A program made the translations under genes and the position numbers. Positions 28,793 to 32,928 of a stretch of DNA of 64,000 bases are shown piece by piece. Source of the DNA: Promethearchaeota archaeon (GTDB taxonomy: Archaea > Asgardarchaeota > Lokiarchaeia > Sigyniarchaeales > SOKP01); NCBI GenBank assembly GCA_016839555.1, contig JAEOUA010000010.1, positions 192,001 to 256,000 on the forward strand, read 5' to 3'. The first letter of the stretch is position 1, and each line of letters opens with the position of its first letter. Under the pieces are notes generated by a model. It worked only from the letters and a program-made list of their open reading frames with translations, was not told the origin of the DNA and did no database searches.

Positions 28793-29701
28793 ATGAAAAT
28801 ATCATTAGTGGGCCTTTCTGGCTGTGGTAAAACATCACTTTATAGTGTGGCATTTGCAGCAAAAAGCCCCGAAGATACGAAATCGTTAAGTCCCACTATC
28901 TTGTATGAGACAAGAAGACATCCTTTTTTAGGTTTACAAGTTGGTATATTTGATTTCGGCGGACAAGAACAATACAGAAAGGAGTACATGGAAAAGCCGG
29001 AAGTCTTCAAAGGCACGGACATCCTGATACCCATTATTGATCTCCATGATCCTGACAGATTTGAACAAGCGAAGGAATATTTTGATGGATTGTTAGATAT
29101 TTATCGCAAGAACAATGAAAAACCGAAAATCTTCTTATTTTATCATAAATATGATACCGAAGATTATGAAAAGGAACTTCTTGATACAAACATCAAAAAG
29201 GCACGTGAAAAATTTGAAGGGATGTTTGAAGGATATGAATCAAAATCCTATCTTACCAGTATTTATGATCAAGATAAATTAGCTAAGATTTTTAGGGATA
29301 TTTTAATCTCCTCTTATGAAGAATTAAAAGGGCATGTGGAAAAGGCGGAGAGCGATTTGGAAGAAATTAATGCTAAAATAATTATTTCCGATATATCTGG
29401 AAATGTTATTGTCCATAATGTAAAAGGAGTAAGTAGCGGGCTCACTTTAAGAGGCGATCTACGAGACTTTATAAATGCATGCAACACTGTGAGAGAGAAT
29501 GTTTTCATGTCGGATTCAGCTCAATTTAAAGGCAGTAATGAGGATGGTAAAGAAATTGATCTACACATCTTTAAGTACATCATTTCTGTGCTAATCATGA
29601 AAACTGGCGAAATAGACATGGAATCACAAGACAAAATCAATATCCTTTTGAATGATATGAAACTCTTTGCAGATCTCATTATTAGCGCTCATACTGAATA
29701 A
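28793..29701 (+). CDS. Rag/Gtr-like small GTPase with a C-terminal roadblock/longin-like domain
   Basis: GLSGCGKTS, SPT, DFGGQ, HKYD (Rag-type G4), TSIYD (G5); GGAGG SD. Confidence 0.75.
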   Translation: MKISLVGLSGCGKTSLYSVAFAAKSPEDTKSLSPTILYETRRHPFLGLQVGIFDFGGQEQYRKEYMEKPEVFKGTDILIPIIDLHDPDRFEQAKEYFDGLLDIYRKNNEKPKIFLFYHKYDTEDYEKELLDTNIKKAREKFEGMFEGYESKSYLTSIYDQDKLAKIFRDILISSYEELKGHVEKAESDLEEINAKIIISDISGNVIVHNVKGVSSGLTLRGDLRDFINACNTVRENVFMSDSAQFKGSNEDGKEIDLHIFKYIISVLIMKTGEIDMESQDKINILLNDMKLFADLIISAHTE

Positions 29702-29898
29702 ATCAATTAAAAGATTTTTTTTCCCTTTTTTTTAAATTAAAATATCAATTTGTAAGCTATTTTAATAAAATTTTACTATTAACTCCTCAGTTTTTTATAG
29801 AGAATCTGTATTCTTTCTATTCTAAATAATTATATAATTTTGAGAATTAGATATTAAAAAAAAATAGAAAATGATTGGAATTTTTAAGTATATTAATA

Positions 29899-30933
29899 TT
29901 ATAAAATCATTGTCCATCCAAATTCATCGAGTAAATCTAATTTTTGTATACCAGTTAAGATCTTGTAAATTTTTTCAGTAATAGGGCCTGGTATGTTGTT
30001 ATTATATGTCTTTGTTCTTTTTTCATAAGTTATTGAACCAATCGGCGTAATCACCGCTGCTGTTCCTGTACAAAAGAGTTCCGCGCAATTATCTCCAAAT
30101 AATTCTTTATATGAAATATCTCTTTGTTCCGTTGTGATGCCAAGTTTGCGTTCTGCTATTTTTAATACAGAGTCAACCGTAATTCCTTCAAGAATGGTGC
30201 CATCGAAACGTGGGGTAACAAGTTTGTTATCAATTATCGCGCAAAAATTTGCTGCTCCCACCTCTGTTATATATTCCTTATAAACAGCATCAAGATAAAT
30301 TATTTGGTCGTAGCCTCTTTTCTTTCCCTCAAGTGCTGGTCTCATGGTACGCGAATAATTAGAACATGTTTTTGTAGAACCGGTCCCCCCCGGACTTGCT
30401 CGAGTATATTTGTTTGAAATTAATAGATTCACTGTATTAAATCCCTCGGGAAAATAAGGTCCAACTGGAGAACAAAACACTAAAAAGATGTATTCTTTTG
30501 CGGGTGCAATTCCCAGCACTGGACCACTTCCGATTAATAATGGACGAATATATAGCGATCCTCCGCTTTCATATGGCGGTATAAAATCCTTATTTGCAAT
30601 AACCACCTTTTTGACTGCATCTAAAAATCTCTGTTTATCATAGGGGGGCATCACAAGCCTTTTTGCACTTTTTTCGAACCTCTCTGCATTTTTCATGGGT
30701 CGAAATAGACTAATTCTCCTATCCTTTGATTTTAATGCTTTTAATCCTTCAAAAACACCTTGACCATAGTTAAGTATACATGCTGCAGGAGATAGTTCTA
30801 TTGAATTAAATGGAATTAATTCACCGTCATCCCACTTTCCATCTTTATATCTGGACAAAAACATCCAATCCGTTTCATAAAAATCAAATTTTAGATTATT
30901 AAAATCTATCATATTTCTTTTTGTTGCTTGCAT
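29899..30933 (-). CDS. ilvE: Branched-chain amino acid aminotransferase
   Basis: LNYGQGVFEGLK, LYIRP, TKTCSNY (PLP Lys), EVGAAN, ILEGIT, GTAAVITP. Confidence 0.95.
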   Translation of the reverse strand: MQATKRNMIDFNNLKFDFYETDWMFLSRYKDGKWDDGELIPFNSIELSPAACILNYGQGVFEGLKALKSKDRRISLFRPMKNAERFEKSAKRLVMPPYDKQRFLDAVKKVVIANKDFIPPYESGGSLYIRPLLIGSGPVLGIAPAKEYIFLVFCSPVGPYFPEGFNTVNLLISNKYTRASPGGTGSTKTCSNYSRTMRPALEGKKRGYDQIIYLDAVYKEYITEVGAANFCAIIDNKLVTPRFDGTILEGITVDSVLKIAERKLGITTEQRDISYKELFGDNCAELFCTGTAAVITPIGSITYEKRTKTYNNNIPGPITEKIYKILTGIQKLDLLDEFGWTMIL

Positions 30934-31094
30934 TTTTTTTTCACGTGTGTTTGTTTTTTTATTATATAGACCTTAGCAAGCAAGCGCTTATTACCCTGAC
31001 CTTATTGATTATGAATTTTAAACACATACAGCAAGATATCAATATTTTTTAACAAATTTAGTAATCAAAAAGAGACAAGGAAAGCTATCTTGCT
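30934..31094 (-). promoter_or_regulatory. Structured leader between the uORF and ilvE with alternative pairings (candidate attenuator)
   Basis: 31086-31094 complements 31030-31038; 31187-31195 complements 30997-31005; 31135-31141 complements 30971-30977; CUCUUUUUG tract at 31066-31074. Confidence 0.55.
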
Positions 31095-31196
31095 TTATAA
31101 TACTAATACAGCTGCGGCAATTGCGATAGCCATAGCTAAGGCTACATAATTATTTTGAACTTTTTCCGCATTATGATTAGTATTACATAAGGTCAT
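31095..31196 (-). CDS. 33-aa putative ilvE leader peptide MTLCNTNHNAEKVQNNYVALAMAIAIAAAVLVL
   Basis: ATG 31196 to TAA 31095; last 16 codons are 8 Val/Leu/Ile, 7 Ala and 1 Met; same strand as ilvE, 161 nt upstream. Confidence 0.65.
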   Translation of the reverse strand: MTLCNTNHNAEKVQNNYVALAMAIAIAAAVLVL

Positions 31197-31201
31197 TGTA
31201 A

Positions 31202-31240
31202 TAGTTTATTTAAACTAATATTTAAAATATATGGTTTTCA
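31202..31240 (-). promoter_or_regulatory. Probable BRE-TATA promoter of the ilvE leader with an adjacent 7-2-7 palindrome
   Basis: TTTTAAATA at 31227-31219, 23-31 nt before the uORF ATG; TAGTTTA-TT-TAAACTA at 31202-31217. Confidence 0.45.
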
Positions 31241-31479
31241 TTAGGGGGAATTGTAGTGGGAATTATCTTATAAAGTGTATTATCACTCTAATTAATAGAA
31301 ATCTTTTTAATTCGAGAATTTAATGGCTTTTAAAGCAATAAGAAATTTTAATTAGCATTTAACCATCATAAGATCCCTTAAAGTCTTCGAAATTACGAGT
31401 CTATCCTAAAAAACATTAATAATAAATATTCATAAAAACTTTAAAAAATATTAATAAAAAAAAAATTTTTTTATTTAAA

Positions 31480-32928
31480 ATGAGGGCTATAAAAAAAAGA
31501 AATAAGATTCTCTCCATATTAATTGTTAGTATTTTTCTAATCATTTTTTCAGCAATTAATATGGGAATAGATTTTAATACGCCTCTTAAAAACTCTGAAA
31601 CAACCATTCTGTACCAAAAAAATCCAATACTCGAACCTTCTTCAGTTACATATAATTGGGGCTCTATAGAATTAATCTCTACGGGTAGCGTTAATGATTC
31701 CAGAGATCCAGAGATTATATCTGACAGTTCAGGAAATTTGTATGTTGTCTGGGATGATGGTAATGCTTCGGATCCAAATGATAGGGATGTATTTTTTAAA
31801 TTGTGGAATAAAACAACTAGTAATTGGGAGAATAATGAGACAGTTTCAGAAGATTACAATTTAATATCTGCTAATCCTGATATAGCTTTAATCGATAAAA
31901 CTGCCTTTGTAGTATGGCAAAATATGGGAGATGATATGAATTCTTATGATATATTACGGAGTATCCGAAATCCTGGCGGAAGTTGGGGCAGTTATAAGAA
32001 TCTAACTATTAATAGTACGGAAAAAATCAAAATAAATCCATCCCTTTATATTGATAAAGCTGGTAGACCACATACAGTATGGACCGAAGTAAATAAAACT
32101 AATTCTAGCTATTACAATATCTATTATAATAAAAACTTTTTAACAACGGAAAGAATAACAAATTATTCTGCGGAAGAAGCAACCAATCCGCAAGTTATTT
32201 GCGATTCTGAAAATAAACCCCATATAGTATGGCAAGAGAAATATGTTGTTGGAATTGGTACTAGTATAAAAATAAGGCATATATGGTATGATGAGGGATG
32301 GAAAGACATAGAAGATATAAGTCAAATAGGAGAATATATAACTTGTAAAGATCCCAGTATCGCTGTAGATAGTTCAGGCAACATACACGTTGTTTGGCAA
32401 ACACACGATAGTACATTCTCTTCCTCCTCCATAAATTATAAAGTTTGGGATAAAATAACTGAAGAATGGGGATCAACTAAGACAATCGCAAATATTGAAT
32501 CAACAGAATATGTTTTCCCTGAGATTGCGATTGATAGTGCGGATAATATACATATAGTATATGGAGATGATCCAAATGCTACATTGGAAAGAGATTTATT
32601 TTACATAAATCTTTTGAGTGATTCAATCATTTGGAGTCCAGCTCAATGTATAGCAAATGGTACTAAGAGTGTATGGGAGTTCTCTATTACAGCAGATATT
32701 TACGACAAAATACATATTGTATGGGAAGATTATTCAAATTTTAACAATTCGGGAGATGATTCAGACATATTTTATAGGCGATTAACTTTAATTCAAAGGA
32801 AACAAAATATCCTATTCCTTCTCCCGAGCAGTCAAGCGCCACAGATTCCAGGTTATAATATTCTTATCTTAATTGGTGCGATTTCTGTAATATCGATGAT
32901 TATAATGAAAAAATATTTGAAAATATGA
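31480..32928 (+). CDS. Secreted beta-propeller-like repeat protein with a Loki-CTERM-type sorting signal
   Basis: Signal peptide; repeats P.I..DS.G..H.VW; many N-x-S/T sites; C-terminal IPGY, TM helix and basic tail. Confidence 0.8.
   Translation: MRAIKKRNKILSILIVSIFLIIFSAINMGIDFNTPLKNSETTILYQKNPILEPSSVTYNWGSIELISTGSVNDSRDPEIISDSSGNLYVVWDDGNASDPNDRDVFFKLWNKTTSNWENNETVSEDYNLISANPDIALIDKTAFVVWQNMGDDMNSYDILRSIRNPGGSWGSYKNLTINSTEKIKINPSLYIDKAGRPHTVWTEVNKTNSSYYNIYYNKNFLTTERITNYSAEEATNPQVICDSENKPHIVWQEKYVVGIGTSIKIRHIWYDEGWKDIEDISQIGEYITCKDPSIAVDSSGNIHVVWQTHDSTFSSSSINYKVWDKITEEWGSTKTIANIESTEYVFPEIAIDSADNIHIVYGDDPNATLERDLFYINLLSDSIIWSPAQCIANGTKSVWEFSITADIYDKIHIVWEDYSNFNNSGDDSDIFYRRLTLIQRKQNILFLLPSSQAPQIPGYNILILIGAISVISMIIMKKYLKI

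Follow-up and report, generated by a model that had tools for sequence, protein, structure and literature searches.

Two exclusive RNA folds and a conserved leader reading frame upstream of ilvE in an Asgard archaeon

The ilvE locus and its leader reading frame

The window analysed here is a 64,000-nucleotide (nt) stretch of a Lokiarchaeal genome (Promethearchaeota archaeon, GenBank assembly GCA_016839555.1, contig JAEOUA010000010.1, positions 192,001 to 256,000), with a G+C content of 30%. On its minus strand lies ilvE, a gene for a group II branched-chain aminotransferase, which is preceded by a promoter, a short upstream open reading frame (uORF) and, between the uORF stop and the ilvE ATG, a spacer of 161 nt (Table 1). 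A first-pass annotation, made from the sequence alone, had named the downstream gene ilvE, and the protein family matches bear this out; against NCBIfam NF009897 the product scores 405.8 bits, with a cut-off of 307. The uORF with its tail rich in Ala, Val, Ile and Leu, the TATA-like box upstream of it and all the motifs quoted in that annotation were likewise recovered in place.

Table 1. Features of the ilvE leader, in the direction of transcription (positions are those of the window)
Feature	Position	Strand	Remarks
TATA-like box, leader promoter	31219-31227	minus	about 31 nt 5' of the uORF ATG
Leader open reading frame (uORF), 33 codons and stop	31095-31196	minus	last 12 codons Ala5 Ile2 Val2 Leu2
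E1, uORF start codon and 7 nt	31187-31196	minus	pairs with E6 (fold X) or E8 (fold Y)
E1b, Asn/Thr codons (codons 4-7)	31176-31185	minus	complementary to the last uORF codons, E2
E2, last four sense codons (Val/Leu) and stop	31095-31107	minus	3' strand of a hairpin within the uORF
E3, purine-rich box	31082-31094	minus	begins at the first base past the stop; pairs with E5 (X) or E7 (Y)
E4, pyrimidine strand with U5 run (31071-31067)	31063-31080	minus	loop in fold X; pairs with E6 in fold Y
E5, proximal partner of E3	31030-31038	minus	fold X
E6, purine run followed by AGGUCA	30995-31010	minus	pairs with E1 (X) or E4 (Y)
E7, distal partner of E3	30975-30989	minus	fold Y; 3' half can pair with the first ilvE codons in this genome
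E8, second AGGUC element	30969-30975	minus	pairs with E1 in fold Y
Shine-Dalgarno-like GUGA	30941-30944	minus	8 nt 5' of the ilvE start; surroundings A-rich and mostly unpaired
ilvE, group II branched-chain aminotransferase	29899-30933	minus	presumed controlled gene; Pfam Aminotran_4, NCBIfam NF009897, TIGR01123

The uORF is not particular to this genome. When ilvE homologues were collected by a protein search of 41 related genomes, the closest of them (60-80% identity) all had a similar-looking open reading frame on the same strand ending 135-218 nt upstream. The uORF is present 5' of ilvE at 18 of 18 orthologous loci (protein identity 60-100%), where the stop-to-ATG distance again spans 135-218 nt. 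In the wider family of leaders described below it is open in all 50 aligned members, always in cis and upstream. Among 39 non-redundant uORFs of this family the frame contains no stop, whereas the two alternative frames have 195 and 97, and the lengths take 12 distinct values between 20 and 37 codons. The uORF is maintained as a reading frame, and the conservation of the frame suggests that it is translated.

A TATA-like 8-mer begins 30-37 nt 5' of the uORF ATG in 50 of the 50 aligned members. Since the TATA box of the present leader lies at a similar distance from the ATG, the uORF transcript is probably leaderless, starting at the AUG or 1-3 nt before it. At the other end of the leader, a GUGA or GAGGU motif is kept at the Shine-Dalgarno position among the ilvE leaders. 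No conserved TATA box was found between E8 and ilvE in these leaders, and in one relative the gap from E8 to ilvE is only about 28 nt.

Covarying pairings and two exclusive folds

Pairing between leader elements was assessed by a duplex test, in which the energies of elements from the same leader (cognate) were compared with those of elements from different leaders (non-cognate). The test covered 13 elements, 78 element pairs and 39 sequences, with a permutation floor of p 0.0005. Exactly six pairs stand out, each at p 0.0005: E3:E5 (-14.2 kcal cognate versus -8.8 kcal non-cognate), E3:E7 (-8.7 versus -5.7 kcal), E4:E6 (-11.1 versus -8.2 kcal), E1b:E2 (-11.7 versus -9.0 kcal), E1:E8 (-6.9 versus -4.5 kcal) and E1:E6 (-7.6 versus -5.9 kcal). 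Element pairs that do not form a helix gave p values of 0.2-0.97. Two of the six had been proposed in the first-pass annotation, namely the pairing of the box after the stop codon with positions 31030-31038 (E3:E5) and that of the uORF start with positions 30997-31005 (E1:E6), and both recur in relatives with compensatory changes. Two other proposals did not survive the comparison. For a local hairpin of GCAAG with CUUGU ahead of the U-run there is no sign of conservation (p 0.73 for E3 with E4), and the pairing of CCUUAGC, in the Ala-Leu-Ala codons, with GCUAAGG in E8 gave a weak signal; E8 has its conserved pairing with the uORF start instead.

The alignments agree with the duplex test. RNAalifold recovers the E3:E5 helix, in which one column pair is occupied by GC four times, AU three times, UA twice and GU twice. 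In the alignment of the ilvE leaders this helix is 92-100% paired and the E1b:E2 helix 74-82%; for E1:E6 and E1:E8, 89.5% and 87.5% of the cells are paired. Two column pairs of E1:E6 contain no unpaired cell (7/268 with CG9 UA5 UG4, and 10/265 with CG11 UA6 UG1). For E4:E6, the family alignment shows compensatory changes specific to lineages, and E2 is conserved at the nucleotide level across all leader classes.

The recurring AGGTCA/TGACCT and CAAG/CTTG words could instead be DNA operator sites, for example for a regulator of the Lrp/AsnC type. Such sites would account for words that occur two or three times as direct and inverted repeats near a promoter. However, G·U outnumbers A·C at the paired positions by 28 to 6 and by 139 to 62, which identifies the structure as RNA of the ilvE strand; pairs that are kept through G·U and rarely through A·C are RNA- and strand-specific. 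The compensatory partner changes differ among lineages, and the TATA box is 100-230 nt upstream of the elements. We therefore consider operator sites a very improbable explanation.

Within the single sequence, the excess of complementarity is modest: 4 complementary 9-mers were found versus 0.9 expected (P 0.05) and 21 complementary 7-mers versus 9.75 expected (P 0.016) in 1000 dinucleotide shuffles, and the fold z-score of this leader is -2.4. For this reason the case rests on the comparison with relatives. If these values were all there was, a chance reading frame with chance complementarities in AT-rich intergenic DNA might be entertained; the comparison refutes it, since 12 of 13 sampled genera of the archaeal family keep the element, the frame and the pairings, and its likelihood is negligible. 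A search of Rfam with cmscan over positions 29500-32500 (E up to 10) found no family match, the only hit being a chance 17-bit coronavirus pseudoknot (gathering score 35.6).

The six helices can be arranged in two folds. Fold X consists of E1:E6, E1b:E2 and E3:E5, and leaves the U-rich E4 single-stranded in a loop and E7 free. Fold Y consists of E1:E8, E1b:E2, E3:E7 and E4:E6, so that E1:E8, E3:E7 and E4:E6 meet in a three-way junction and both the U-tract and E7 are sequestered. To measure support for the folds, the 18 ilvE leaders were aligned with MAFFT without regard to structure, and slid partners served as the control. Fold X is 88% paired versus 36-52% with slid partners, and fold Y 69.5% versus 41-52%. 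In the present leader, fold Y has the minimum free energy. It could be enforced in all but 9 leaders, which have overlapping element windows, and the median difference between the folds is 3.4 kcal. Folds X and Y are mutually exclusive and nearly isoenergetic, and their six pairings covary, as would be expected of an attenuator. In both folds the uORF start codon is paired, and the last codons form a hairpin with the 5' part of the same reading frame.

A leader family and its codon content

A covariance model (R1) was built on 11 ilvE leaders. Its 18 best matches (92-127 bits) are the leaders of 18 ilvE genes, and its weaker matches show the same architecture in front of other genes: two kinds of leucyl-tRNA synthetase (LeuRS), acyl-CoA dehydrogenases, a pyridoxal-dependent decarboxylase, an ABC exporter and small proteins. 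A second model (R2), built on all 50 aligned family members, has matches in 95 of the 126 genomes sampled from one archaeal family, with one to three copies each. Six other families of the same class, represented by 24 genomes, gave no match. About 130 related leader elements were found with the covariance model. Searches of this genome and 154 genomes of the order with simple word patterns proved too strict, and the extra matches were mostly random; the true matches all lie 5' of ilvE.

In a maximum-likelihood tree of the aminotransferases, 12 genes, all without the leader, form a clade with 100/100 support ('paralog 2'), into which the second ilvE copy of this genome (contig C12) also falls. 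The leader is carried by all 16 genes of the family-specific clade that lie outside 'paralog 2', and by none of the aminotransferase genes of other families in the tree. The leader-bearing ilvE genes are one lineage.

The codon content of the uORF tracks the downstream gene, as would be predicted for an amino-acid switch sensed by the ribosome. Over the last 12 codons of the ilvE leaders, Ala makes up 43% (4.9% in the genome) and Val 22% (4.7% in the genome). Leu makes up 62% in the leaders of the two LeuRS types, Val 53% in those of the acyl-CoA dehydrogenases, and Val and Leu together 80-90% in those of the small reading frames. The LeuRS leaders (L075, L089 and L093, where the synthetase has a bacterial-type editing domain, and L102, before the other type) contain 7-9 Leu in the last 12 codons. 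Of the Val, Leu, Ile and Ala sensing proposed in the first-pass annotation, the enrichment of Ala and Val before ilvE stands; Ile and Leu are near background there. The regulatory codons expected of an attenuator are thus over-represented, with the exception of Ile and Leu before ilvE. Ala codons in the tails are distributed as they are genome-wide, which places the constraint on the amino acid rather than the base sequence. For Val, 45 of 48 codons are GTA, compared with 35% genome-wide, and across the classes Asn codons in E1b go with Leu tails and Thr codons with Val tails.

The GTA preference and the pairing of the final Val/Leu codons with the Asn/Thr codons of E1b would also fit a structured 5' leader in which the uORF is translated constitutively, for instance to open up the RNA, for coupling of ribosomes with RNA polymerase or for mRNA stability. 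The true signal would then be something else, such as a protein or metabolite bound at the three-way junction, and the codon bias a by-product of E1b:E2 pairing. The tail codons are common rather than rare, and the modelled effect of ribosome masking on accessibility (see below) is small, both of which suit this explanation. However, pairing leaves unexplained the Ala-rich ilvE tails with their freely used synonymous codons, as well as the Leu tails before two unrelated LeuRS types and the Val tails before acyl-CoA dehydrogenases. There is neither an Rfam match nor a conserved unpaired pocket of the kind that is typical of a ligand site. We regard a constitutively translated uORF as unlikely.

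A further alternative is that the uORF is an independent small gene for a hydrophobic micro-protein, or part of a dual-function small RNA, which merely neighbours ilvE and has the downstream elements as its 3' untranslated region. The C-terminal half of the peptide is hydrophobic, the second leader copy of this genome is followed only by a 45-codon reading frame and a convergent gene, and a degenerate copy in a relative has no downstream gene. On the other hand, the peptide is conserved in composition and not in sequence beyond composition, and many orthologs have charged or polar residues within the hydrophobic run. Its composition changes with the downstream gene, the Ala-rich type was found only before one ilvE lineage and in a fixed orientation, and the short distance from E8 to the ribosome-binding site downstream holds no conserved promoter. 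The first-pass annotation had itself listed absence from relatives, a separate ilvE transcription start downstream of the uORF and a stand-alone peptide as findings that would speak against its proposal; relatives keep the uORF and the pairings, there is no conserved promoter from the uORF to ilvE, and the Ala-rich form was found only before that one lineage. An independent small gene is, in our judgement, quite unlikely.

The two copies just mentioned are as follows. With R2, this genome has two leaders, that of ilvE and one on contig C7 (34192-34342, minus strand; locus L104), which combines a TATA box and a 23-codon uORF rich in Val with the same two-state scaffold and a GGAGGU ribosome-binding site. 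It is followed by a reading frame of about 45 codons with a probable GTG start, and its transcript would face a convergent class I/II-like aminotransferase gene that ends about 385 nt downstream. The degenerate copy (L079; G010:C178:13775-13910 of a relative) is an Ala-rich leader of the ilvE type that has lost E6-E8 and has no gene downstream on its strand; probably it is what remained when a leader-bearing ilvE was lost.

Among loci L072-L103, three or four families of 45-70-residue proteins are the most frequent genes behind Val/Leu-type leaders (for example L084:1332-1466:-, L092:563-766:+, L100:1340-1486:- and L103:1291-1485:-). These families have no Pfam or NCBIfam match, and one of them is followed by an Amidohydro_3 gene. 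The leader alone suggests a link of these proteins to Val/Leu physiology.

A leader of like design, although separate from this family, precedes a leuA-type gene (HMGL-like and LeuA_dimer) on contig C12 of this genome. Its 34-codon Leu-rich uORF (133951-134055, minus strand; L113:1852-1956) lies 101 nt 5' of the gene, has AAGGA upstream and is thus not leaderless, and is followed by hairpins and a U5 run. It is matched by neither R1 nor R2. A genome-wide scan for TATA-preceded short reading frames with biased tails was noisy, with 58 matches versus 35 in a reversed-sequence control, and served only to relocate this leuA leader.

In the surroundings of the leader in the window, ilvE is apparently monocistronic. 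A gene for a Gtr1/RagA-type GTPase (28793-29701, plus strand) is convergent with it, and the leader promoter is divergent from a gene (31480-32928, plus strand) for a 482-residue BNR/beta-propeller-like protein with terminal hydrophobic segments. The GTPase gene and the low G+C content of the window agree with the Asgard assignment made in the first-pass annotation. The stretch 31420-31479 has a G+C content of 3%. A tRNA scan found no tRNA genes in the window. Elsewhere, 5' of the second ilvE copy on contig C12 (L114, about 1790-1900), and also at L014, L018 and L021, there is a conserved G+C-rich stretch with a spurious reading frame in several genomes. By eye it resembles an intron-containing tRNA gene on the opposite strand, and is a candidate for one.

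Interpretation and comparison with known systems

We consider it probable that the leader is an amino-acid-sensing reading frame which selects between folds X and Y and so controls ilvE. A ribosome on the short, probably leaderless uORF would report the supply of charged tRNA, here mainly for Ala and Val. Because both folds bury the uORF AUG, ribosomes would load only before E6 is made, and sensing would be co-transcriptional. A ribosome on the last codons or the stop codon would mask E3 and block E3:E5, the first helix able to form, and so lead to fold Y; if E3 is left free, fold X would result. The geometry, in which E3 starts at the first base past the stop and the tail is one strand of E1b:E2, is suggestive of control by ribosome position.

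The output of such a switch may lie in E4, a strand that may be an archaeal termination or cleavage signal. At least 5 consecutive T occur within 48 nt past the uORF stop in 42 of the 50 leaders, and the longest T run ends 25-32 nt past the stop in 34 of the 50; most members have a U5-U7 tract 22-30 nt after the stop. If a ribosome follows RNA polymerase closely, the polymerase would have arrived at this tract by the time the ribosome is at the stop codon. In fold X it would be exposed to the archaeal termination or cleavage machinery, and in fold Y it would be paired. Termination in archaea relies on short U-rich tracts that need no hairpin, with the help of aCPSF1, and activity in this role is documented for a Lokiarchaeal ortholog of aCPSF1 (PMC7515710). 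Beta-CASP proteins are encoded in the present genome.

As a second candidate output, E7 may occlude the region that holds the ribosome-binding site and start of ilvE. Covariation of E7 with the ribosome-binding region is weak (difference -0.95 kcal, p 0.0025), and when this leader was folded without the uORF, 30983-30976 paired with 30931-24. Modelled effects of occlusion were small and of mixed sign, and translation control was not adopted as the main output.

As to the direction of control, we lean slightly, by analogy with the bacterial ilv, leu and pheST leaders, towards starvation turning the gene on, a sign that the synthetase and biosynthetic targets would also argue for. The opposite sign, in which plenty turns the gene on, would fit a catabolic aminotransferase or catabolic targets and the geometry of ribosome-polymerase coupling.

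Several observations weigh against this interpretation. E3 would be masked only by stalls on the last three or four codons, yet the Ala run lies further upstream, and Ile and Leu in the ilvE-leader tails are not enriched. The tail codons are common ones, and since pairing with E1b also limits the choice of the final Val/Leu codons, the composition may be partly structural. The leader classes are few and related, so that the association of codons with genes rests on a handful of independent events. The small reading frames, the ABC exporter and the decarboxylase would be controlled genes without an obvious link to Val or Leu. On the side of the output, no conserved hairpin directly precedes the U-run, and 8 of the 50 leaders have fewer than 5 consecutive U, which departs from classical terminator logic. 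Masking of the uORF end lowered rather than raised the modelled accessibility of the ribosome-binding site (0.58 free versus 0.50 masked). Accessibility was 0.45 in fold X versus 0.54 in fold Y, a comparison that is biased because fold Y masks more bases, and in the models the ilvE start is mostly open in either state.

The first-pass annotation had read the leader as an attenuator. The conserved uORF in cis, the alternative pairings and the codons that track the gene agree with this, but the leader lacks what defines a classical transcription attenuator, a conserved terminator hairpin that abuts the U-run. A G+C-rich hairpin followed directly by a U-run, as in an intrinsic terminator, is not found here; the U-run is itself one strand of the covarying long-range helix with the downstream E6.

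More tentatively, the leaders may form a modular ribosome-read switch within one archaeal family, in which a conserved two-state scaffold carries a leaderless sensor reading frame with a re-codable tail (Ala/Val, Val or Leu), and a U-tract is hidden from, or exposed to, the aCPSF1/RNA polymerase termination machinery. If true, this possible switch would be wired to aminotransferase, tRNA synthetase, acyl-CoA dehydrogenase and small-protein genes, and it would represent attenuation without a terminator hairpin, acting through eukaryote-like termination machinery. To our knowledge it would be the first attenuation mechanism defined in archaea; a full-text literature search found no description of an archaeal leader-peptide attenuator. 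With about 130 variants, six covarying helices and several specificities on one scaffold, the leader family is a test case defined by sequence, with comparatively good support, in the archaeal group closest to eukaryotes. It would make archaeal coupling of ribosome and RNA polymerase testable, together with a conditional U-tract terminator without a hairpin and leaderless initiation in sensing.

The family may also be of value for annotation. The Ala/Val sensor hints that the leader-bearing ilvE paralog handles alanine and valine; going purely by this sensor, that paralog may be an alanine/valine-linked transaminase and the leaderless C12 paralog the general enzyme. For three of the small-protein families, the Val/Leu sensors point to Val/Leu physiology.

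Ribosome-mediated attenuation is a textbook example of the coupling of transcription and translation in bacteria, and the leaders ilvL (of ilvGMEDA) and ivbL (of ilvBN) of enterobacteria are transcription attenuators of this kind. Like the present leader, they contain a short reading frame rich in the amino acids of the downstream enzymes (ilvE lies within ilvGMEDA), mutually exclusive pairings and a U-run after the reading frame. In contrast, no hairpin abuts the U-run here, and the U-run itself is part of a long-range helix. The archaeal reading frame is probably leaderless and is rich in Ala and Val instead of Val, Ile and Leu, and its host terminates transcription without the need for a hairpin. 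There is no sequence or Rfam relationship between ilvL or ivbL and the archaeal leader.

The Leu-rich leaders before LeuRS resemble the T-box and pheM-pheST leaders, in that a synthetase gene lies behind a sensor of its own amino acid. T-boxes bind tRNA directly, without a reading frame, and pheM of E. coli acts on pheST through a terminator hairpin. The LeuRS leaders would be a counterpart of bacterial T-box or pheM control that is based on a reading frame.

In the ilvBNC attenuator of Corynebacterium glutamicum, overlapping alternative hairpins allow switching at low cost (PMC11857589). The archaeal leader likewise precedes a branched-chain amino-acid gene and has overlapping alternative pairings, between which a switch would cost little energy. 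Terminator, antiterminator and anti-antiterminator hairpins and a proven intrinsic terminator belong to the bacterial system, whereas none is demonstrable here. The U5-U7 tract without an upstream hairpin is instead like that of aCPSF1 (FttA) termination (PMC7515710); no description of the conditional use of such a tract, through alternate looping and pairing, was found in the literature.

The closest parallel is the 'Cys ribulon' of mycobacteria, in which ribosomes stalled on leaderless poly-Cys short reading frames are reported to prevent an mRNA structure from sequestering the ribosome-binding site downstream (bioRxiv 10.1101/834739). Like that system, the archaeal family has putative sensory reading frames, probably leaderless, at several loci, with a family-wide, modular use that resembles the shared amino-acid dependence of the mycobacterial loci. 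Sequestration of the ribosome-binding site is only weakly supported by modelling in the archaeal leader. The Cys ribulon is bacterial and serves a single amino acid, whereas in the archaeal family Ala/Val, Val and Leu specificities are found on one RNA scaffold.

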